This document shows positions 22,337-33,334 of a stretch of 64,000 nucleotides of DNA, piece after piece (positions within the stretch are counted from its first letter, which is position 1; every line of letters starts with the position of its first letter). A program made the position numbers and the translations under genes. Origin of the DNA: an uncultured delta proteobacterium (lineage in GTDB: Bacteria > Desulfobacterota > Binatia > UBA9968); NCBI GenBank assembly GCA_963737905.1, contig CAVTUQ010000012.1, forward strand, positions 128,001-192,000. The letters are read 5' to 3'. The notes under the pieces are model-generated. The model searched no databases. It worked only from the letters and a program-made list of their open reading frames with translations, and had not been told where the DNA came from.

Positions 22337-23110
22337 TTACCTGCCTTTGAACTCCGGCTTACGCTTTTCGAGAAAGGCTTTCATCCCTTCTTTGCGATCC
22401 TCTGAGGCGAACAACATGTAAAACGATTTGCGTTCAAACTCGAGGCCTTCATCGAGAGCGGTGTTGGCAGACTTCAGTACAGCTTCCTTGACCGCTTTTA
22501 CGGCGAGAACGGGCTTCGCGGCGATCTTCTTCGCGATGTTCTTGGCTTCGTCGAGCAGCAGCTCAACGGGGACAACGCGGTTCACTAAGCCGAAGCGTTC
22601 GGCATCGGCAGCGCTCATCGTTTCTCCCGTCAATACCATTTCCATGGCCCGATATTTTCCCACGGTTCGGGTGAGCCGTTGGGTTCCGCCGCTACCCGGA
22701 ATGATTCCCAGATTAACCTCCGGTTGGCCGAAGCGCGCAGTCTCCGAAGCGATAATGATGTCACAACTCATGGCGAGTTCACAGCCGCCCCCTAAAGCGA
22801 AGCCGCTCACAGCGGCAATAACGGGCTTAGTAATGCGGTTGATGCGATCCCGATACGCCAATCGCTCTTGAATTCTTGCATCGAAGGGACCTCGATCGGC
22901 CATTTCTTTGATGTCGGCGCCGGCAGCAAACACTTTCTCTCCGCCGGTAACGATCATGACTCGGACTTCGTCATCATGATCGAGCTCCTGCATCGCCAGG
23001 GACAGGTCCTTGACTAGGTCGTAGGAGAGGGCATTCAGTTGCTGGGGCCGGTTGAGAGTGAGGACTGCAATGGAAGTGTCTTTTTCAACGATGACGTTTT
23101 CAAATTCCAT
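22337..23110 (-). CDS. enoyl-CoA hydratase (PaaF-like)
   Basis: [20 protein letters not shown] and PGSGGTQRL motifs. Confidence 0.93.
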
Positions 23111-23287
23111 ACAATCCAGACTTTTATAAATACACCATGGAACCAGGGGATTCAAGGTAAGTGAGAGTGCGCGTGCCGAGGAGAAAGCCTCGTAAAATCA
23201 TTGGCCTATGAAACATTTGGTCTTAGAACCGGCCAGGATCGTGAAGTTGACACCCCCCGGGTGATTTGCAAATATAGAGGCTCATCC

Positions 23288-23971
23288 ATGTCCAATCGGC
23301 TCGAACCCACTTCCCGTAGTTATGACGAAAAACTCCAGCGTATATTAAAAATTTCGGCAAAAATCTTTGCCGAAAAAGGATTTCACCGCACCTCGGTGCG
23401 GGACATCTCCCGCTCGACAAAAATGAGTTTGGCGGGGCTCTATTACTACTTTTCGACCAAGGAAGAGCTGCTTTATCTCATTCAAGAACGCTGTTTCGTT
23501 ACTCTACTACAGCGTTGGGAGCGCGCCGCGACGCCTGATATGGACGTCCGTACTCGCATTCGACTTTTTGCTGAAAACCATTTGAGTTTTTTCTGCCACA
23601 ACATGCACGAGATGAAGGTGATGGCGCACGAGGATGAGTCCCTCACGGGCGAATTCCAGGTCAAGATCTTGGTCCTCAAGCGGCGCTACGTAAAAGTCAT
23701 CATGGATCTTATCCGGGAACTCCAAGATCAAGAAGGTGGAAAGGGCATGGATCTACGGGTGGCGACTTTCTCTCTGTTCGGCATGATGAACTGGATCTAT
23801 ACCTGGTATCAGCCAAAACGAGACTTAGCGCTTCCCCAACTGATGGAGCAGATGCTGCGGATCTACTTCTTCGGTGTCCTGCAGGGAGGAGCGGTTGAGG
23901 CGCCTTGGTTCAATGCAACTTCTGGTACTTCGAGCAAGGAAACGTTTTCTCTCTGGCATAATAATCAGTAG
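23288..23971 (+). CDS. TetR family transcriptional regulator (PaaR/KstR2-like)
   Basis: HTH FAEKGFHRTSVRDI...LYYYFSTKEELL and GMMNWIYTWY. Divergent from the acyl-CoA cluster. Confidence 0.9.
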   Translation: MSNRLEPTSRSYDEKLQRILKISAKIFAEKGFHRTSVRDISRSTKMSLAGLYYYFSTKEELLYLIQERCFVTLLQRWERAATPDMDVRTRIRLFAENHLSFFCHNMHEMKVMAHEDESLTGEFQVKILVLKRRYVKVIMDLIRELQDQEGGKGMDLRVATFSLFGMMNWIYTWYQPKRDLALPQLMEQMLRIYFFGVLQGGAVEAPWFNATSGTSSKETFSLWHNNQ

Positions 23972-23974
23972 ACG

Positions 23975-24020
23975 TTACCCCTCACCCCTCACCCTTCACG
24001 TAAGGGGTTAGGGTTGAGGG
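23975..24020. repeat. 7-bp tandem repeat with inverted counterpart
   Basis: TTACCCC-TCACCCC-TCACCCT-TCAC followed by GGGGTTA-GGGTTGA-GGG. Confidence 0.7.
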
Positions 24021-24034
24021 AAATCTAAAAGACT

Positions 24035-24562
24035 ATGATTCGTATTGGCGATAAGGCACCGAATTTCACCTTGAAGGGAATTTTCCAAGGAACGGTCGCG
24101 GATTTTACGATTCAATCTTTTCCGGGGAAATGGCTGATCCTCTTCTTCTATCCCGCTGATTTTACATTCATCTGTCCCACTGAAGTGGCTGGATTCAGCA
24201 AGGCGGCACATGAATTTCGCGCCGAGGATGCCGAAATTCTCGGGGTCAGCGTTGATTCGCTGGAAAGTCATCGAAAATGGGCGGAAGAATTGGGCGGCGT
24301 GAACTACCCACTTCTCAGCGACGACCAAAAAAATGTCAGCCGCGCCTACAACGTGTTGGACGAGAAAGATGGGGTCTGTTTGAGAGCCACGTTCATCATC
24401 AATCCTGCCGGAGAAGTCAGTTATTTAGTCGTAAGCCACACTAATGTGGGACGCAGCGTGGAAGAAACTCTGCGCGTGCTCAAGGCGCTGCGCACGGAGC
24501 GTCTCTGTCCCTCCGACTGGAAACCCGGCGAAGCCACCGGCGATCTCACGCTCAAGTACTGA
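24035..24562 (+). CDS. 2-Cys peroxiredoxin (AhpC-type)
   Basis: FYPADFTFICPTE, GRSVEE.LR and LCPSDW motifs. Confidence 0.93.
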   Translation: MIRIGDKAPNFTLKGIFQGTVADFTIQSFPGKWLILFFYPADFTFICPTEVAGFSKAAHEFRAEDAEILGVSVDSLESHRKWAEELGGVNYPLLSDDQKNVSRAYNVLDEKDGVCLRATFIINPAGEVSYLVVSHTNVGRSVEETLRVLKALRTERLCPSDWKPGEATGDLTLKY

Positions 24563-24634
24563 TGGCAAGATAGAAAGATAGCGGATAGAAGATAGCGACG
24601 TTTGATTTTCTTTCCGCCATCTCAAATTTAAACA

Positions 24635-25363
24635 ATGTCTCTCGAGGCCATTGAGCAAAAGAAAGACCTCATCGAAAGTCGGGCTCGCATACGCGAGTTC
24701 GTTTTCGGCATTCAAGACGGTTTGATGAGCACCGTGGGGCTGCTGACCGGAGTCCAGGGTGCCACCGAAAGCACTGCAGTTGTCATTATCACGGGCTTCA
24801 CGGCGATGTTTTCGGGGGCGATTTCCATGGCGGCCGGATCTTACCTTTCATCGAGCGCGGAGAAAGATATCTTCGACAAGGAACTGCGCGATGCCGAAGT
24901 GCTGGCGGAAAGGGAACCCTATTTGGCTGCCGAGGGATTGCTGAAGGCTTTGAATCAGGAAGGTTTGGCGCGGGAGCAGAGTTATAACGTCGTCAAGGTT
25001 CTCTTGCGCCAGCAGCACGCATTTCTAAGGACTTTTCAGGAAAAAGTCTTCGGCCTCGGATCGGCGGAAATTAACCGGCCTCTCCAAGGGGCTTTGGTCA
25101 TGGCAGCTTCGTTCGTGATCGGCGCTTCCGTGCCGATCGTGCCTTATCTGCTGGTCGCAGGCCGAACCGCTTTGATTCTTTCGATTGTGCTCTCGGGTTT
25201 CGTCCTCTTTGGGGTGGGGTTCGTCAAAGGCCGCTTGGCGGCGAAGTCGCCGGCGCGGTCCGGCGCCCAGTTCTTCGCGATTGCCGTGGGCGCTGCGCTC
25301 CTGGGATATCTGATCGGCTTGGTCGTCCAACATTTCTTTCCTGACATTTCGATTCCGGCGTGA
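24635..25363 (+). CDS. VIT1/CCC1 family Fe/Mn transporter
   Basis: VFGIQDGL, GAISMAAGSYLS and multiple TM helices. Confidence 0.9.
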   Translation: MSLEAIEQKKDLIESRARIREFVFGIQDGLMSTVGLLTGVQGATESTAVVIITGFTAMFSGAISMAAGSYLSSSAEKDIFDKELRDAEVLAEREPYLAAEGLLKALNQEGLAREQSYNVVKVLLRQQHAFLRTFQEKVFGLGSAEINRPLQGALVMAASFVIGASVPIVPYLLVAGRTALILSIVLSGFVLFGVGFVKGRLAAKSPARSGAQFFAIAVGAALLGYLIGLVVQHFFPDISIPA

Positions 25364-25384
25364 CGGCGACTGGTTTTTTTCCTC

Positions 25385-25613
25385 TTAGTCGATCAGACTT
25401 CTAAGCAACGTTAGATTTTCCCGATCCTCGGCTAGGTCCGGCCCTTTAGGCGTTTCGAGGCACATGGGGAGACCCCAGAAGCGTTTGTCGTTCACGAGAA
25501 ACCGGAACGCGTCGACGCCGATGTGGCCTTTCCCGATGTGCTCATGACGGTCTACGCGAGAATTGAACTCCTTCTTCGAATCGTTCAGATGGAACCCACA
25601 AAGCGTTCGATCC
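25385..25613 (-). pseudogene. duplicated 3' fragment of endonuclease IV (nfo)
   Basis: GFHLNDSKKEFNSRVDRHEHIGKGHIG...CLETPKGPDL...LLRSLID* matches the C-terminus of the gene at 29191-30066. Confidence 0.92.
25518..25564 (+). repeat. 47-bp perfect direct repeat, copy 1 (copy 2 at 29327-29373)
   Basis: CCGATGTGGCCTTTCCCGATGTGCTCATGACGGTCTACGCGAGAATT is identical at both sites. Confidence 0.95.
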
Positions 25614-25643
25614 TGACAAAACGGGCTCACGATAGGGGGAACA

Positions 25644-28475
25644 ATGGTTGTCACCCAAGAACTTTTCGCTGCATACCTGAACTGCCCGACAAAGGCATAT
25701 CTCATGAGCTCAGCAATCCCAACGGAGCAGACTAAATTCAGGAGGTGGAAAGCGGATATTCAAAATAGGCTACGACAACAAGGAGTAGAGTTACTTCGAA
25801 AACAAAGCCGCCTCGAAATCAAAGAAAGTCCTACGGCAGACGATCTTTCAGCGAAAGAGTCTGCTCTTTACGTAAATTGCTCTATTGGATTTGAAGAGCT
25901 GAGATCGGTGATTGACGCTGTTGAAAAAATAGACTTACCAGGCAGAAAGAGTCAATTGCTTCCCTGTCGATGTCAATTAGACAAACGCGCGGAGAGACAT
26001 GAAAAGCTCCTATTGGCTTATGATGCCCTATGTCTACAAGCCTTCACAGGAGTACCTATCCGTGCGGGCAAGTTGGTCGACGGGATTAGTAAACGTGCAA
26101 AGAAAGTTCAACTAAATAGCCAGCTCAAAGCGGTGCAGGACCATGTTCGACGACTGACAGAGCTGCTTGGACAAGCAAAGGAACCGCCGCTGATCCTGAA
26201 CAGACATTGCGTCGAATGTGAATTCCGAGCGCGGTGTCGTGAGAAGGCTGCGGAGACGGACGATTTGAGCCTCCTTTCCAAAATGAGCCTTAAAGAGCGA
26301 CAAAAGTTACAAGGCAAAGGAATCTTCACAGTCCAGCAACTTTCCTACACGTTTAGGCCAAGGAGACGACGCAAAAGCCCCCGTTCAAATGCAGACAATT
26401 TCTCCTATGCCCTAAGAGCACTGGCGATTCGAGAAAATAAAATCCATGTCGCCGGAACGCCCACTTTTACGATTCAAGGCGATGACTGCTTTTTGGACGT
26501 GGAGGGCATTCCCGATTATGGATTCTATTATCTCGCCGGGCTACGGTTTCGTCTCAACGGCCAGCCAATCCAACATTCATTTTGGGCGGGCGACCGTTGC
26601 GACGAGGAAACTATGTGGAACGACCTAGTCACGAACTTACGTGCGAGTGGGTTTCGCCGAATTATTCATTTCGGAAACTTCGAAAAGGAGTTTCTGATAG
26701 CCATGACCAAGCGTTATTGTAAGTCAAAGGAACAATCGGAATATGTTGAAAGTTTGGTCCAGCAGACGGTTAACCTTTTGTCGGTAATCTACAGCCGAAT
26801 CTATTTTCCGACGTCTTCGAATAGCCTAAAAGATATTGCTCGCTACCTGGGACACAGATGGCCGGATGAAATTGGAAGCGGCTATGAAGCATTGCTCGCC
26901 CGTCATTACTGGGAAGCCTCAAGAGAGCTGAGCGTCAAGGAAGCCCTCCTGAGTTATAACATCAGCGATTGCGAAGCTCTCCATTTGGTTGCGGACTGCG
27001 TCTCTAAAATGTGTGGTCAATTATCAACCGCGGGACCGAATGACGATTCTAAATTTGTCGATACCAATAAATTGAGGGGATGGGGACCGTTCAAGTTTGG
27101 ACAGCTGAATTGTGCGATACCAGACTTTGAATACATCAATCGCGCCTCTTACTGGGACTATCAGCGCGAGCGAATCGTTTTTCGGTCGCGACGCTTACGC
27201 AAGCGGATTCGTATGCACACCTCTAGTAGACGGATAAAATACCGGGCAAATAAGGCAATCGCTCATCGACGAACTATTGCTTGTCCCTACTGTAAGTCGC
27301 GAGAGATTTATAAGTGGGGACCGAGAAATAAGACGGTCTATGATCTCAAGTTTTCTCCAGCCGGCGTAAAGCGTTGGGTCGTAAATTATCAATTTGATCG
27401 GCACAAATGCTGGCAATGCAGGAAAACTTTTATGCCTCCAAGGAAACCTTGGACGCGAAGCAAATACGGAGATGGTTTGATACGATACTTAGTTTTTCTC
27501 ACGGTTGACCTGCAAATTTCACAAAGAGCCGCAAAAAAGTTAATAAATCAGTTCTTTGGTTTGGACCTATCAGGGGAATCTGCCGGGAGGTTTAAAAAGA
27601 CTGCCGCCGCCTTTTATAAAGTAACTTACAACAAAATATTGCAAAATATAGTCAAGAGTCCCTTGGCCCATGTTGATGAAACGAAGGTTAGTCTCAATGG
27701 TCGAAGTGCTTATGTCTGGGTCTTAGCGAATCACGAAGATGTAGCTTACTTTGTTTCAGAGAGCCGCGAGGGCGCAAAGGTTCAAGATATCCTGAATAAA
27801 TTCAAGGGTATCTTGGTTTCTGACTTTTACAGTCTTTACGACTCTTTCGAATGTCCACAGCAAAAATGCCTCATTCACTTGCTGCGGGATTTAAACGATG
27901 ATCTCTTGCGTGAACCATTCAATGAAGAACTTAAGTCGGTAGTCAACGGTTTTGCGTCTTTGGTTAAACCGATCGTTGAAACCGTGGATCGATATGGACT
28001 CAAGTGTCGTTTCATGAAAAAACACAAACGGTCAGTGGGCAGGTTTTACCGTTGGCTGACAAGGACCAATTTTGAGACGGAAGTGGGCGTCGGCTATAAA
28101 AAACGATTTGAGAAAAATAGACAGAAACTTTTTACTTTCTTGGAATACGATGATGTCCCATGGAACAACAACGCGGCGGAGCATGCCATTAAAGCCTTCG
28201 CGACGCTCCGACGCGTGTTTGGAGGTAGTAGCACGGAACGTGGCATCCAAGATTATCTTGTTCTGCTCAGCGTGTGTGAGACATGTCGTTATCGAGGAAT
28301 AAAGTTTTGGGACTTTTTGTGTTCTGGTTACAAAGACGTGGACGCCTATGTCAAAAGTCAACGGCTTCATAGACGCCGGGTTACCAAGACAAGTATGCTG
28401 AAATCCAGAAACGCAATTATCTCGCAAAGCGATGGCAATGTATGCCAAGTTGGGGAGGCTTCTGAGCAGTATTAG
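25644..28475 (+). mobile_element. IS66-family DDE transposase fused to N-terminal TM0106 (Cas4/RecB-like + RNase H-like) domains
   Basis: YLNCPTK...HCVECEFRARC (Cas4-like Cys set); FLDVEG, IHFGNFE, SLKDIA.YLG, YNISDC (RNase H/DnaQ-like); CPYC..CWQC zinc ribbon; HVDET, LVSDFY, QKCLIHLLR, NNAAEHAIK (IS66 DDE). AT-richer than the flanks. Confidence 0.88.
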
Positions 28476-28594
28476 GATTCCCGATCTTCCGCCGGACCAT
28501 GCGCTGTTTCGAGGCGCATCCCGATGCCGATGTGGTGATGGAAAGCTGCTTCTGGTATGCTTTTGCTGCTGACGAGAGGGCGAAAAGTCTGTTT

Positions 28595-28822
28595 ATGAAT
28601 ATGCCTAGCCATGAAGAATTATATGATCGCTTCGTAAAAGGCCTGGAGTCTAAACACAGAGGAGCCTTTGCTGCCGTTCGCCCGGACGGAAAAGTTATTG
28701 TTGACAAGGACGATGTCAAAGTCGTGGACCGAGCGCTTAAGCAATTTGGCCCCGGTAATTTCGTGTTGTTAAAGGTTGGCAGTAGGGGAGTGGGGAAATG
28801 GCGCAGTCAACGACGGTTGTGA
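28595..28822 (+). CDS. small DUF5678-like protein
   Basis: LESKHRGAFAAVRPDGKVIV; overlaps the downstream protease gene. Confidence 0.6.
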   Translation: MNMPSHEELYDRFVKGLESKHRGAFAAVRPDGKVIVDKDDVKVVDRALKQFGPGNFVLLKVGSRGVGKWRSQRRL

Positions 28823-29163
28823 CGCCCGCATATCCGTATGTCGAGGTCGAGTTTGCCGTCGGCGCTTTTCGTTCTTCAACCGTTCTCGCCTATGTCGATA
28901 CAGGCTTTGACGGTTATCTGATTATTCCCAATACACAAACATCGCTTCTTGGTCCGCCACAATTCTTTGCGCCCTGGGAGCTTGGAGATGGGTCGGTCGT
29001 GCAGGCGCAGGAATACCGCGGTGATATCCTGATCTCCGGATTGAGCATAAGCATTCCCGCCCGCATTACACTAATAGGGGAAGAATACCTGTTGGGTCGT
29101 GGCGTTGTAGACCACGTGCGTATGACGTTTGATCATGGCCAGCGGCTGTTGTTGGAAGCGTGA
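28798..29163 (+). CDS. retropepsin-like (clan AA) aspartic protease
   Basis: AYVDTGFDGYL catalytic motif, LGDGS flap, LLGRG. Confidence 0.85.
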   Translation: MAQSTTVVTPAYPYVEVEFAVGAFRSSTVLAYVDTGFDGYLIIPNTQTSLLGPPQFFAPWELGDGSVVQAQEYRGDILISGLSISIPARITLIGEEYLLGRGVVDHVRMTFDHGQRLLLEA

Positions 29164-29190
29164 AGCCCCTCCCCTTGGCTCACTGTTTCT

Positions 29191-30066
29191 CTAGTCCTGA
29201 ATCAGGCTCCTCAGCAGCGTTAAGTTTTCTTTATCTTCTTTCAGGTCCGGGCCCTTCGGCGTCTCCAAGCACATGGGTAATCCCCAAAAGCGCTGGTCGT
29301 TAAGCAGTAGACGGAAGGCTTCGACACCGATGTGGCCTTTCCCGATGTGCTCATGACGGTCTACGCGAGAATTAAATTCCTTCTTTGAGTCATTCAAATG
29401 AAAAGCCGCTAGGCGGTCAATGCCGATCTCTTCATCGAAATCCGTGAACGTTCGCTCGTAACCTTCCTTTGTCCGAATGTCATACCCTGCGGCGAAGGCA
29501 TGCTCGGTGTCGAAGCAGACTCTGAGCCGATCGCTTTCTTTGGTTGCGTCAAACATTCTAGCGATCTGTTCGAAGCGGTAGCCGAGATTGGAGCCCTGGC
29601 CGGCCGTGATCTCGAGTGTGACCTTCACATTATAGCCGGGGCAGGCCTTGTGGACCTCGTCCAGTGAATGAGCAATGGTCTTTATACCTTCGTCTTCGCC
29701 GGCGCCCACGTGGGAGCCAGGATGAGCGATCAAATTCGACACGCCCAGGATTTCGCACCGTTCCAACTCGTCGATGAAGGCGGCTACCGAACGCTTTCGC
29801 AAAGAACCATCGGGCGAACCCAAATTGAGCAGATAGGAATCATGGGCAATCACGGTGGTGATTCCGGTGGCTTTCCGATTCAAATCAAACAGCTCGATTT
29901 CTTCCTTTGTGCAAGGCTTGGCCGCCCATTGGCGCGACGACTTCGTGAAGATCTGAATCGCGTCGCAATCTACAGTCTTACCCAGGAGCAGGGATTTATC
30001 GACGCCTCCCGCGATGGACATATGGGCGCCCAGGAGCGGGCGGGGCGGTTTCTCTTTCTGTTTCAT
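29191..30066 (-). CDS. nfo: endonuclease IV (AP endonuclease)
   Basis: LGAHMSIAGG, QIF, HDSYLLNL, HPGSH, EITAGQG, DTEH, HLNDSK and DRHEHIG. Confidence 0.97.
   Translation of the reverse strand: MKQKEKPPRPLLGAHMSIAGGVDKSLLLGKTVDCDAIQIFTKSSRQWAAKPCTKEEIELFDLNRKATGITTVIAHDSYLLNLGSPDGSLRKRSVAAFIDELERCEILGVSNLIAHPGSHVGAGEDEGIKTIAHSLDEVHKACPGYNVKVTLEITAGQGSNLGYRFEQIARMFDATKESDRLRVCFDTEHAFAAGYDIRTKEGYERTFTDFDEEIGIDRLAAFHLNDSKKEFNSRVDRHEHIGKGHIGVEAFRLLLNDQRFWGLPMCLETPKGPDLKEDKENLTLLRSLIQD
29327..29373 (+). repeat. 47-bp perfect direct repeat, copy 2
   Basis: Identical to 25518-25564. Confidence 0.95.
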
Positions 30067-30072
30067 AACATT

Positions 30073-30167
30073 TTGAACGTCTTGAACTTTTTGAACGGTT
30101 TGAACCATTGCTATATTCCGCCCGCGTTCAAACCGTTTAAGCCGTTCAAAGCGTTCAAGTCGTTCAT
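30073..30167. repeat. 9-bp-period tandem repeats arranged as a palindrome
   Basis: TTGAAC at 30073, 30082, 30091, 30100. GTTCAA-like at 30126, 30135, 30144, 30153, 30162. Confidence 0.85.
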
Positions 30168-31774
30168 CCAGTAAAGTGTCTCTTTTCTACCAGCGGTAGC
30201 GAAATACTGCCGGCGCTTAGCAACTTGTCGTGAAACTCACGGAGATTGAAGCGCGATTCGAGGCGGATCTGCTCCCGGTCCCGCAACCGATTGATGATCG
30301 ACCAACCCAGGGCATAGCCCATCGGCCCGGAGGGCGATTGGCTGTACCAGTTCAAATCTGCGCAGGCTTGAGCGCGCGGGAAATGGAGTTCTCGGACCAT
30401 CAACTCCGCGGCCTCGTCATAGGTCATCCGGCCGGTCTGTGTTTTGACGTCGATGATGATGCGCAGCGCGCGCCAAAGCCGATCTTTGAGCATGACAAAC
30501 CGGTGCTCCTTGGTTTTTAGAAAACCTTGCTCCTGCATAAGCTGCTCACAATAGAGTGCCCAGCCTTCGTAGAACACAGAGGACTCGTTCATCAGCCGCG
30601 GCAAGGTGGAGGCTGCGGCGATCGAGTTGGCAACCGAAAACTGCAGGTGATGGCCGGGATAGCTTTCGTGGACCGAAGTATTCTCCAACCCTACCCAGTT
30701 GTGCTCCCTGAGCAAATCATCATCCGTTACCGGTGTAACATAGTAGTAGCCGACCTGATCGGGATCTTTCGGCGAGGGCGATAAATAAGCGGCGAAGGGA
30801 ATCTCATGGCGGCGAAACTCCGGTGTGTGGACGACGTGCAGCTCTTCTTTCGGCGGAAAAGAGACCAGATCCTTTTCTCTGACAAACTCGCGCGCGGATT
30901 CCATCGCTTTCTGGTAGGCGGAAAGGATTTGATCGATGGGCGGATGGTTGTCCTGGATCTTACGGGCGACCTCTTCGATGTTCTTCCCGGGCGCCAGTTC
31001 ATCCGCGAGAGCTGTGAGTTCTCGCTTCGTCTTGGCAAAAAGCTCTTCACCCAGAGCCAGGAGGCTCTGCGCATCATGATTCAGAAAATGTTTTTTCTTT
31101 AGCAGGAGATTGTAATGTTCCTCGCCGACCGCATAGACGCCTTGGCTCCGCGGCAAAAGCTCGTGCTCGAGAAAGTTCGCGTAGCGATTAATGGCGTGTT
31201 TTGCAGTATCCACCGCCGAGCGAAGCGCTACGGTGTCCCTAACTCCACTTTGAACTTTCGGATGGTCCGGCAGGCTATCGAGAAAGCTCACCCCGCCCTT
31301 GGCGCTCTCGATGGCCATCTCTGTCCAAAGGCGTGGTGGATTAGCATCGGGGCGGCTGAGATTAGCGATGCCTTGCTGGATCACAGCGGGCGTCCGGTTC
31401 AGCCGGTTCAATAGATTTCCAGCCAGATCGTTGGTTGAGCGCACCGTGAGAATATAGATTGCGTCCACTGGCAGATAAGTGTCGGGCCACTTCAGGCGGT
31501 AATCTTCTTTTGTGTGTTCATAGCGTTGAATGGTTAGACGACCCTCGAGCAGGGCGTAATCGATGACCTGATCTCTGTCGAGCTCTCTGACGCGAATTTG
31601 CTGGAGCGTTTTTAACGACTCTTCTACGAAGATTTTTTCGGCTCGATAGATCTCCTCGGAGTAGTCATTGAGCAGGTGATCGTAGCCTTCGATGCCATAG
31701 TAGATAGCCTCGCTGGGATGAAGCTCAAAATATTTTTTAAAGTAGTCAGTGCAGAAATCGGTGAAAGAAGACAT
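30164..31774 (-). CDS. DUF885 family protein
   Basis: HESYPGHHLQ, FYEGWALYCE, RALRIIID and FHDKLL..GS motifs. Confidence 0.92.
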   Translation of the reverse strand: MSSFTDFCTDYFKKYFELHPSEAIYYGIEGYDHLLNDYSEEIYRAEKIFVEESLKTLQQIRVRELDRDQVIDYALLEGRLTIQRYEHTKEDYRLKWPDTYLPVDAIYILTVRSTNDLAGNLLNRLNRTPAVIQQGIANLSRPDANPPRLWTEMAIESAKGGVSFLDSLPDHPKVQSGVRDTVALRSAVDTAKHAINRYANFLEHELLPRSQGVYAVGEEHYNLLLKKKHFLNHDAQSLLALGEELFAKTKRELTALADELAPGKNIEEVARKIQDNHPPIDQILSAYQKAMESAREFVREKDLVSFPPKEELHVVHTPEFRRHEIPFAAYLSPSPKDPDQVGYYYVTPVTDDDLLREHNWVGLENTSVHESYPGHHLQFSVANSIAAASTLPRLMNESSVFYEGWALYCEQLMQEQGFLKTKEHRFVMLKDRLWRALRIIIDVKTQTGRMTYDEAAELMVRELHFPRAQACADLNWYSQSPSGPMGYALGWSIINRLRDREQIRLESRFNLREFHDKLLSAGSISLPLVEKRHFTG

Positions 31775-31903
31775 TCCAATCCCTTATCACCTTAGCCCAC
31801 ATGCTTCAATTTTGGGGTGGAAGCCCTGAATCTGGTTTGTGCTTTCTGTAGATGCAGGATGATGCCACGCCACTTCCGTCAGGTGAAACCGCAATCTGAG
31901 GCG

Positions 31904-33334
31904 CTACGCGTAAATTTGTCGTCTTAGGTATTGGCCGACCGAAGCATCGGTAACTTTGGCCCGGGGTTCGCCCTCTGGCCATTCCATGACGATATGGCCC
32001 CGAACCAGGGTCATGACCGGCCAACCGGTTACTTCCCAACCTTCATATACCGACCAGGGTGTTACGGTGTGGAGAAGATCTTTCGTGATCTTGGCCCGCC
32101 GTTTCAAATCGACGACGATCAAATCTGCGTCGGCTCCCGGGACGATCGCTCCCTTTTTTGGATAGAGACCGAAAATCCGCGCGGGATTTTCGCTCGCGAC
32201 CTCCGCCAACCGTTCGATGGATATTCGTCCCTTGTTCACTCCCTCGCTCAACATCATCGGCAGCATTCCCTCGACGCGGGAAGGAAAGCCGCTGATTGTC
32301 GTCCAGACATTCCCGGTCTCCATCGACTCACGGGTTCTGGTGTGGGCGACATGGTCGCTGCCGATGCAGTCGATGGCGCCGGAAGCAAGCGCTTGCCAAA
32401 GCGTCTGATGCGTCGAGCGATCGCGCAGCGGCACGTTGATTTTCCAGGCGTCTTTGTGCAGCACGAGGTAGTGCGTGCCGATTTCGCTGTACACCGTCAA
32501 ACCTTCAGCCTTGGCCTTTTCAATTTCCGCGATAGTTTCCTTGGTCGTCACATGGACGATGTAAATCGGACAACCTGCAACTCGGGCATAGTAGAGATAG
32601 GTCCTGGCGTGTCCGGCTTCGGTGAATGCCGGCGAGCGATCATCCCACGCGCCCATGTCGGTACGGCCCGCATCCACCAGACGTTGCTGCAGGACGCGGG
32701 CAATCTCCCAGTTCTCGCAGTGGAGCAGAGCAATCGCCGGTGTACCTAGCTTGGCTACGGATTCGAAAGTGGCGTAAATGCTGCCGTCGTCAAAGGCGTA
32801 GGCGGGCCACGAAGATTTCCAGGGTCCCTGCATCTGCAAATGCAATTTGAAAGACGTGATTCCATGCTCTCTCGCCAAGTACGGGATCTCTCCGACATGC
32901 TCGTCGGTGCCGAGGATGGGCGTCAGGAAAAAATCGATCGCCGCGCTGCGCGACGCCTCATAGTATAGCGGCATGGATTTGGTGAACGACGGAATATCCG
33001 CCGGGCCTTTGACCTTGTCTGCCCCGCCCGTAATCGCGAGACTCACGAGCTGCATGCCCCAGGTCGTCACTCCCGTGGCCGCCGCCGCTCTGGTCTCGGT
33101 TTGGAAATCATCGGCCAGCGGGCGATGGCTCCCTAGGTGGCATTCGGGGTCGATTGCGCCAGGAAGGAGATATTTGCCGGCGAGGTCGATCTGGCGATCC
33201 GCGGCGGGTAAAAAGCCGTCGCTTCCGACAGCCGCGATCTTACCGTCGAGGATCGCGACGCCGCCTTCGATCGTGCCGCCGGGCGTGACAATCAAGCCAT
33301 TTCTAAAAACGAGGTCCGCCGCTTTGTTGGCCAT
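31904..33334 (-). CDS. dihydroorotase/allantoinase/hydantoinase family amidohydrolase
   Basis: LPGAID, LHCEN, VHVT, GSDH and NPARIFGLYPKKGAIVPGADAD. Confidence 0.9.
   Translation of the reverse strand: MANKAADLVFRNGLIVTPGGTIEGGVAILDGKIAAVGSDGFLPAADRQIDLAGKYLLPGAIDPECHLGSHRPLADDFQTETRAAAATGVTTWGMQLVSLAITGGADKVKGPADIPSFTKSMPLYYEASRSAAIDFFLTPILGTDEHVGEIPYLAREHGITSFKLHLQMQGPWKSSWPAYAFDDGSIYATFESVAKLGTPAIALLHCENWEIARVLQQRLVDAGRTDMGAWDDRSPAFTEAGHARTYLYYARVAGCPIYIVHVTTKETIAEIEKAKAEGLTVYSEIGTHYLVLHKDAWKINVPLRDRSTHQTLWQALASGAIDCIGSDHVAHTRTRESMETGNVWTTISGFPSRVEGMLPMMLSEGVNKGRISIERLAEVASENPARIFGLYPKKGAIVPGADADLIVVDLKRRAKITKDLLHTVTPWSVYEGWEVTGWPVMTLVRGHIVMEWPEGEPRAKVTDASVGQYLRRQIYA

Follow-up and report, generated by a model that had tools for sequence, protein, structure and literature searches.

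We analyzed a 64,000-nt stretch (hereafter the window) from the metagenome-assembled genome of an uncultured delta proteobacterium (Binatia; UBA9968), covering positions 128,001 to 192,000 of contig CAVTUQ010000012.1 in assembly GCA_963737905.1. In it, the 3′ end of nfo, the gene for deoxyribonuclease IV, is found both in the intact gene and as a displaced end 3.8 kb away, with a transposase–nuclease gene, a decayed third nfo end, and a module of two small genes between them. We refer to the end of the intact gene as copy A, to the displaced end as copy C, to the decayed remnant as copy B′, and to the two small genes as o1 and o2. Compared genomes and loci carry G and L numbers, respectively, with G000 denoting the genome of the window. 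In window coordinates, the features are the following:

24635..25363, forward strand: VIT1-family gene (Pfam VIT1, 1.1e-49), which forms the conserved outer flank and in most relatives converges on nfo
25385..25616, reverse strand: copy C, displaced nfo 3′ end, about residues 229–305 (Pfam AP_endonuc_2, 2.1e-11, on the open reading frame containing it)
25518..25564, reverse strand: 47-nt block in copy C, identical to 29327–29373
25636..28424, forward strand: transposase unit of ~2.79 kb (boundaries from a 93%-identical copy at another locus, L047 and L069; Pfam and NCBIfam matches)
28425..28457, no strand: 33-nt spacer from the right end of the unit to copy B′, conserved in related contigs
~28458..28535, reverse strand: copy B′, decayed nfo-end remnant, about residues 277–301 with insertions and deletions (repeat search; alignments with the 89-nt fragment B of G001 and with six contigs)
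28538..28822, forward strand: o1, 94 amino acids from this start (no Pfam match above cut-off; a further ATG upstream, at 28499, falls within the nfo remnant)
28798..29163, forward strand: o2, clan-AA aspartic-protease-like, 121 amino acids (TIGR03698, 3.7e-8, below its cut-off)
29191..30108, reverse strand: nfo, deoxyribonuclease IV, 305 amino acids (TIGR00587, 292.6 bits against a cut-off of 129.65; Pfam 2e-54; no internal stops), the last 230 nt being copy A
29327..29373, reverse strand: 47-nt block in copy A, identical to 25518–25564 and encoding the conserved stretch NSRVDRHEHIGKGHIG

The displaced nfo end and its identical block

The nfo gene is an intact open reading frame and matches the curated deoxyribonuclease IV family over its full length. 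Copies A and C are in direct orientation and 78% alike over ~230 nt. A repeat search aligned 25392–25594 with 29201–29403 (203 nt, 79% identity), and a tblastn search matched nfo residues 233–303 to contig positions 153603–153391 (window 25603–25391) with 88.7% identity over 71 amino acids. Clear homology between the two copies stops at ~25616, with a possible extension across a 19-nt gap up to the transposase unit. Copy C has a 1-nt deletion near its upstream edge, and 22 nt separate its stop codon from the convergent VIT1 gene.

Over the full repeat, copies A and C differ at 47 of 210 aligned nucleotides, distributed as 12, 2, and 33 over the three codon positions; on the stop-codon side the differences number 40 in 133 (11, 2, and 27). 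Since 33 of the 47 differences fall at third codon positions, A and C must have diverged as working genes in separate lineages, and at least one of the ends is therefore foreign to the gene that it now neighbors. The same third-position tendency was seen in the repeat pairs of other genomes described below (5, 0, and 6 in G001; 6, 2, and 9 in G003; 4, 1, and 6 in G565).

The 47-nt block is an exact match. Shuffling the A/C differences freely produced an identical run of at least 47 nt in 5 of 100,000 replicates, and shuffling within codon positions in 1 of 100,000. The longest identical runs between the nfo end of the window and 14 other full-length ends were 12–33 nt, and all 16 other nfo ends covering the block differ from it, at 4–15 of the 47 positions (6 in the congener G001). 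The comparators include an unpublished genome (G012), and the result is independent of it. Judged by these comparisons, the block is neither chance nor plain conservation. Inside it, two third-codon states are common to A and C only, when compared against 16 and 17 other sequences. These findings agree with a sequence-only reading of the stretch, which had described the nfo end as present twice in direct orientation, the stop-codon side as ~72% identical with largely synonymous differences, the homology as ending at ~25613, and 47 bp as identical between the copies.

The similarity of nfo to its congener changes at the block. Compared with G001, the window gene differs at 27 of the 174 nt that end at the distal edge of the block and at 9 of the 133 nt beyond it (p = 0.02), a drop that is absent in five other pairs (p = 0.39–0.89). 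Among the sites informative in a three-way comparison of A, C, and G001, those upstream of the block are divided between A (3) and C (4) as the partner of G001, all 6 inside the block unite A and C, and those downstream join A to G001 in 35 cases and C to G001 in 2 (p = 0.003 for the switch). Such a reciprocal change of affinity is the pattern predicted by a crossover at the block and is suggestive of one, with only 30 nt and 7 sites contributing on the upstream side. Direct repeats of the arm flank the insert and the target gene is regenerated, as in Campbell-type integration.

The transposase–nuclease unit and the o1–o2 module

The copy of the transposase unit on L047 and L069 comes from an unrelated locus represented by two metagenome contigs, and its homology to the window stops at 25636 on one side and 28424 on the other. 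By these limits, the mobile part is ~2.79 kb long and contains no nfo DNA. The unit is single-copy in this genome and has a GC content of 0.42–0.50, below the 0.51–0.60 of its flanks. Its single open reading frame (25644–28475, 943 amino acids) fuses a Cas4/RecB-like nuclease to RNase_H_2 and IS66 DDE domains. The IS66-family assignment is based on PF03050 (9.8e-31) and NF033517 (186 bits against a cut-off of 180); the N-terminus belongs to the TM0106 nucleases (TIGR03491, 175.3 bits against a cut-off of 97.45, residues 4–451), and Cas4 (PF01930, 9.2e-7) and RNase_H_2 (PF13482, 2.9e-12) were also matched. The frame starts 8 nt from the left end of the unit (8–16 nt when a second subfamily is included) and has no stop inside it, reading 51 nt into the right-hand DNA in the window and 26 nt in L047 (1494–4301). 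In the window, the stop codon is supplied by copy B′, which also underlies the start region of o1.

IS66-family insertion sequences have terminal inverted repeats and generate an 8-nt target duplication, and their canonical form carries the accessory genes tnpA and tnpB upstream. The unit resembles single-open-reading-frame IS66 members and TM0106 nucleases, with an IS66 DDE domain and TIGR03491 in one protein. Unlike ordinary IS66 elements, it lacks accessory genes, its one reading frame overruns the right end, and clear inverted repeats and an 8-nt duplication were not demonstrable. We found no convincing terminal inverted repeats or target duplications around the unit in the window or in L032, L033, L047, L048, L050, L052, and L062, and no evident target duplication in L047 or L062. 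Local alignments of the unit ends gave weak matches of 11–22 nt only; the best inverted match, 18 of 22 in L048, pairs the spacer upstream of the unit with a site 11 nt inside the right end.

The nuclease–RNase H–IS66 fusion is abundant, with 1771 matches among 8000 candidates scored, and full-length copies are found on Acaryochloris and Calothrix plasmids, annotated as TM0106 nuclease or putative IS66 transposase. Within the family of the window, homologues are present in 7 of 90 genomes; the subfamily seen here was found only in G000 and G565, and G783 has five distant copies. The fusion is apparently undescribed despite its abundance: the titles and abstract openings returned by a literature search contained no description of a nuclease–IS66 fusion or of gene-end arms of this kind. 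In a second subfamily, with ~40% amino acid identity to that of the window, two diverged copies stand side by side in several soil contigs (L064, L065, L067, and L078).

A conserved spacer of ~195 nt separates copy C from the unit in L048, L052, L055, and L074 and is missing in the window, L053, and L056; among the contigs that have it, C is truncated at three different points. The spacer was considered as a missing left end of the unit and dismissed, the left end of the second subfamily being likewise close to the reading frame, 16 nt before the start codon.

The o1–o2 module has a history of its own. In G001, of the same genus, the locus reads VIT1, 380 nt, an 89-nt nfo end (B), o1, o2, and nfo, without the transposase and without C, and is 90.4% identical to the window over 1403 nt. 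As G001 carries o1–o2 with its own displaced nfo end and no transposase, the module is a separate acquisition, and the presence of the third nfo end B′ makes the insert of the window composite. The sequence-only reading had taken it for one insert; that part did not hold, the unit and o1–o2 being separate nested acquisitions, each with a displaced nfo end.

The o1 protein is 91.6% identical to its G001 copy. Of 88 candidates, 83 proved to be homologues of o2, and JGI annotates some of them as "predicted aspartyl protease." Neither gene had a Pfam match above cut-off that would make o1–o2 a toxin–antitoxin pair. Across loci, o1–o2 are 91–94.5% identical, and the nfo bodies there 78–87% and VIT1 75–89%; this conservation fits a recent exchange of the module among diverged backgrounds or, alternatively, a stronger constraint on the module. 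No tyrosine or serine recombinase was found in the window insert, where the only family matches were to the Cas4/RNase_H_2/IS66 fusion and the aspartic-protease-like protein.

In G001, the 380 nt between VIT1 and the displaced nfo end (L021, 4279–4660) have no Pfam match and correspond to 22 nt in the window. In G002, a third member of the genus, o1 directly follows nfo and o2 is missing (L023, 4712–4898); the contig ends inside o1, which is 92.6% identical to that of the window, with nfo at only ~80%.

The nfo locus in other genomes and metagenome contigs

We searched 40 relatives with the whole nfo and a sample of 401 genomes of the class with its last 76 residues. In the class sample, 205 genomes had a match and 12 of these had two, half of them (6 of 12) in the family of the window. 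Among the other six, G616 and G793 have second full-length copies, and G752, G584, G724, and G744 were not opened. The order prx–VIT1 followed by nfo–DUF885 is kept in 9 of the 11 relatives' loci examined, a synteny comparison to which the unpublished G006 and G012 contribute, and among the same 11 the nfo end is duplicated only in G001 and G003. In G006, G008, G010, and G016, the larger inserts contain no further nfo end; three of the four, by the look of their translated reading frames, carry a putative two-component system.

The cargo between nfo ends varies among genomes. In G003, repeats of 100–110 nt enclose a MazE/PIN toxin–antitoxin pair (MazE_antitoxin 6.8e-10, PIN 3.5e-14). In G565, the same transposase subfamily (69% amino acid identity) lies between 115-nt repeats that are 90% identical and share a 69-nt exact block, and a MazE-like gene follows. 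In G791, a phosphoketolase, an acetate kinase, and a 41-residue stump of VIT1 stand between nfo and a 75-nt nfo end. The junction there connects internal parts of VIT1 and nfo and so needs an illegitimate join, such as the circularization of a fragment. G643 has an inverted copy of a TetR gene and the last 34 codons of nfo 34 kb away (L081, 1243–2181; L082, 16170–17963); this duplicate bounds a 34-kb segment, which may represent either an inversion or a large insertion.

The longest exact blocks of the repeat pairs measure 47 nt in the window, 69 nt in G565, 32 nt in G003, and 32 nt in G001 and occupy differing positions in nfo. That of the window, at residues ~243–258, overlaps none of the others and lies outside the nfo fragments of G001, G003, and G565. 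No integrase was matched in the inserts of G001, G003, G565, and G791, in which the long reading frames scanned belonged to other families and the rest were only listed. Inserts free of integrases and exact blocks at different positions of nfo together argue for homologous rather than site-specific recombination.

At homologous transposase loci elsewhere, by comparison, flanking direct repeats within 2 kb were found in none of eight (L032, L033, L047, L059, L060, L062, L063, and L065), two of which are one locus from two samples and three of which have a flank of less than 700 nt; a scan of genome contigs gave two distant loci only. Judged from these loci and from the genomes with other cargo, the duplication belongs to the nfo locus and not to the transposase. 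The count of none in eight also tells against the suggestion of the sequence-only reading that the locus may be an element carrying an nfo fragment as a homology arm, and is among the outcomes which that reading had listed as refuting it: the loci where such flanks were expected have none, and on L047 and L069 the unit stands without nfo DNA.

Among metagenome contigs, 32 loci encode relatives of the transposase; 15 were compared with the window by blastn, and 12 are named here as lying at the nfo/VIT1 locus. L048, L052, and L074 contain VIT1, a variously truncated C, the ~195-nt spacer, and the unit. L048, L052, L054, L055, L056, and L058 contain the unit, the same 33-nt spacer, B′, and o1, and all of them except L052 extend into o2, which is partly deleted in L055. 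L048 spans the end of VIT1, C, the unit, B′, o1, and o2 into the nfo end; L052 and L074 cover prx through VIT1 and C to the unit; and L058 runs from the unit through B′, o1, o2, and nfo into DUF885. In L049, L050, and L057, the unit lies beside a complete nfo without o1–o2, with L050 retaining a decayed C (a 70-nt repeat, 84% identical).

The soil-metagenome contigs with the same architecture and junctions are 83–94% identical to the window. As diverged contigs share it, the structure is older than the block without differences in this genome, and the underlying event need not have occurred in this genome.

Three contigs have a joined form. L056 reads 3′ part of the unit, B′, o1, o2, a single nfo fragment X, and 5′ part of the unit; L053 reads VIT1, a complete B, o1, o2, X, and the unit; and L055 starts and ends in an nfo fragment, with a 56-nt exact terminal overlap. 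Fragment X, which joins o2 directly to the transposase in L053 and L056, is a hybrid, C-like upstream of the block and A-like downstream: with X of L053 as the reference, 5 upstream sites agree with C and 2 with A, and 27 downstream sites agree with A and 9 with C. The exact tract of L055, at least 56 nt long, overlaps the window block in a shifted position and differs from it at 4 sites. Any of three sources would be expected to give a joined form of this kind: an excised circle, a tandem copy, or an assembly path that passes through identical repeats.

Public sequencing runs were consulted as assembled contigs. The best of 24 runs holds 0.43 of the sampled words, and the contigs of four runs aligned to the window include none across the whole stretch. 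They contain one weak joint from 25053 to 29234, whose shorter side measures 20 nt, and a contig of 3874 nt that matches 25802–29412 before continuing into 267 unlike letters; over a 47-nt repeat, these contigs have no bearing on whether a circle, an empty site, or a chimera exists.

Origin of the displaced ends

Campbell-type insertion-duplication is known from nonreplicating plasmids with one homology arm, and IS26-type translocatable units rejoin by homologous recombination. We favor repeated capture of this type at the nfo 3′ end, with the unit and o1–o2 as cargo and the 47-mer as the latest exchange between A and C, and hold this account to be about evenly poised between right and wrong. 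The nfo 3′ end would serve as a landing pad for homologous recombination, and donor segments from diverged relatives, carrying an nfo 3′ end, would have been inserted within it at least twice, most likely by a single crossover of a circularized or tandem segment. In each event, the intact gene would be rebuilt from the host 5′ part and the incoming 3′ end, and the previous end would be pushed outward as a dead fragment. One event in this lineage may have set the transposase unit between two nfo ends, and another may have brought in o1–o2 with its own nfo end and left B′ behind. The 47-nt block would then be the tract of the most recent A/C exchange and the transposase–nuclease fusion the cargo rather than the engine. 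The three nfo ends, their nested arrangement, the signature of a foreign allele, the mosaic nfo, the recurrence in relatives, the discrete transposase unit, and the lack of an integrase are demonstrated; the circular intermediate, the order of events, and the dependence on the host recombination system are inferred.

Much of the sequence-only reading is retained in this account. Its claim that a functional nfo was rebuilt as a chimera is borne out by an intact and mosaic gene, and family scans of the reading frames in the insert left the nuclease–IS66 fusion as the sole mobility gene, as it had said. Its central proposal, crossover integration of a circle carrying a foreign nfo end, is supported in part: the foreign allele, the mosaic, and the hybrid fragment X speak for it, and the notion of a single insert had to be given up.

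Several observations weigh against the favored account. The circle, the empty site, and the excision junction were not directly seen in the assembled public-run contigs, which are uninformative over the 47-nt repeat, and the joined contigs may reflect tandem amplification or an assembly graph that cycled through identical repeats. The 30 nt and 7 informative sites upstream of the block make the marker-exchange test weak, and the p value of the mosaic comes from one reference genome, G001. A later conversion patch would account for the A/C-private states inside the block no less well than the scar of a crossover. B′ shares its diagnostic codons with C in the window and in five of six aligned contigs; the two ends beside the transposase may therefore have been alike in the past, as expected from a duplication within the genome, and the A-type end may have come later with o1–o2. 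The whole block could also have entered this genome by ordinary double crossover in its flanks, and both G001 and L052 show breakpoints between prx and VIT1. Finally, the formation of the first circle is not explained by a Campbell-type model. The low identity of VIT1 to G001 (75%) was considered as the mark of a foreign block of VIT1, C, and the unit and set aside, as the regional identities form a mosaic and do not settle the matter.

A bolder version, which we regard as unlikely, gives the insert itself an active life. A 3.8-kb integrase-free unit, consisting of an nfo-end arm, the transposase–nuclease gene, an old nfo remnant, and o1–o2, would cycle between a joined form, circular or tandem, and an integrated one. 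Its captured nfo arm would allow it to enter diverged relatives at nfo, always repairing the gene, and the nuclease–transposase may make the circle or the initiating break.

The main rival to the favored account, possible in our judgment though none too probable, holds that the composite locus is old and came to this genome intact, by vertical descent or through a double crossover in prx/VIT1 and nfo/DUF885, and that the 47-nt identity is a later, short non-crossover conversion patch unrelated to the arrival of the insert; the duplications would have the same origin as in the favored account. An architecture shared with contigs 83–94% identical to the window, and thus predating the tract without differences, is what this rival expects, and the two private states inside the tract and the recombination breakpoints visible in the flanks are also in its favor. 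The exact tract of L055, with its shifted position, further points to recurrent homogenization. The change in similarity to G001 at the tract edge (27/174 and 9/133) fits it less well, as does the switch of three-way sites from 3:4 to 35:2 across the tract, which a non-crossover patch would not cause, and the origin of the duplications is left unexplained. Retention of attL and attR by tandem-accreted site-specific elements, with the nfo 3′ end in attP and with the integrase and most genes later deleted, would follow the pattern of cis-mobilizable remnants beside integrative conjugative elements. Such a history could account for direct nfo-end repeats around differing cargo in five genomes of the family and an inverted copy in one, for the upstream edges of five fragments falling at residues 268–281, and for an exact or near-exact block flanked by diverged sequence in each pair; small addiction-type modules like MazE/PIN are typical survivors of decayed islands. 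We consider it very unlikely, given that the inserts read (those of the window, G001, G003, G565, and G791) have no integrase, that the exact blocks share no single position that could be a fixed core, and that the G791 junction of VIT1 and nfo interiors is not an att structure.

The transposase–nuclease fusion might itself have made the duplication, through widely staggered target cuts or through excision with adjacent nfo DNA followed by reinsertion. Two genera (G000 and G565) have this subfamily between nfo-end repeats with matching relative orientation, and contigs without o1–o2, such as L050, have it there as well; in every case, the left end of the unit adjoins the upstream edge of the fragment; and ordinary inverted ends or a short target duplication could not be demonstrated. 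Against this stand the eight loci elsewhere without flanking repeats, the nfo-end repeats of G001, G003, and G791 that have no such gene, and the varying repeat lengths (230, 115, and 70 nt), which together make the idea decidedly improbable. An assembly artifact joining two strains at the shared 47-mer might be suspected in a metagenome bin with 6.7% contamination, and an assembly graph built from short words would collapse the 47-mer. Each junction is spanned by contigs assembled independently from other samples (L048, L052, L074, and L058); they contradict the chimera that the sequence-only reading had named as its possible undoing and reduce its probability to a negligible level.

Several components of the favored account are already established: one-arm insertion-duplication, islands with a replacement gene end, and one-sided homologous capture. 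The locus resembles Campbell-type integration in the direct arm repeats around the insert, the chimeric rebuilt target, the insert without a dedicated recombinase, and the variable crossover position, and a circle excised through the repeats would carry a hybrid arm comparable with that in L056 and L055. Unlike there, the arm is a 75- to 230-nt fragment of a diverged orthologue (78–90% identical) rather than identical sequence, the events recur at one housekeeping gene end in several genera, and we found no replicon or transfer function and demonstrated no circle. Islands and other integrative elements can enter a gene 3′ end with a replacement end, accrete in tandem, and leave integrase-less remnants, for example at fda in Streptococcus thermophilus. 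The regenerated target, the displaced old end, the tandem modules separated by gene-end copies, and the small addiction-like modules are shared with these, in contrast to the inserts read without an integrase, the lack of a common core position, and the plainly illegitimate junction of G791. In homology-facilitated illegitimate recombination, described from naturally transformable bacteria, the textbook outcome is replacement or deletion of recipient DNA without duplication of the anchor. One homologous anchor in a conserved gene and a nonhomologous other end, as in G791, recall that process, whereas the duplication of the anchor here needs a circular or two-step route.

Unusual at this locus are the recurrence at one housekeeping gene end across genera, the short diverged arms, the lack of a recombinase, and the apparent joined form. 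If gene-end fragments routinely act as portable homology arms, small modules and insertion sequences could spread among diverged soil bacteria without an integrase and leave the target unharmed, by a route that would be missed by tools seeking recombinases or short target duplications. The locus also offers a natural series of stages (empty, one module, two modules, and joined form) for reconstructing the process.

An Rfam search of 23000–32000 gave no match. Around the start of nfo, 30067–30166 contains 9-nt units (TTGAAC plus 3 nt) in direct and inverted orientation, the direct run being in phase with a VQ-rich N-terminal extension, MVQTVQKVQDVQNV, of the protein. In metagenome contigs aligned to the window, this segment behaves like a dispersed repeat, with a spike in depth (47.5 in X1) and many loose ends. 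A self-comparison of the whole genome gave 307 local direct-repeat pairs; these were left unsorted, and by coordinates and identities most resemble paralogous families. Outside the window, contig C12 of G000 has a 462-nt direct repeat (197606–198067 and 200700–201161) with 97.6% identity, the copies lying 2.6 kb apart.

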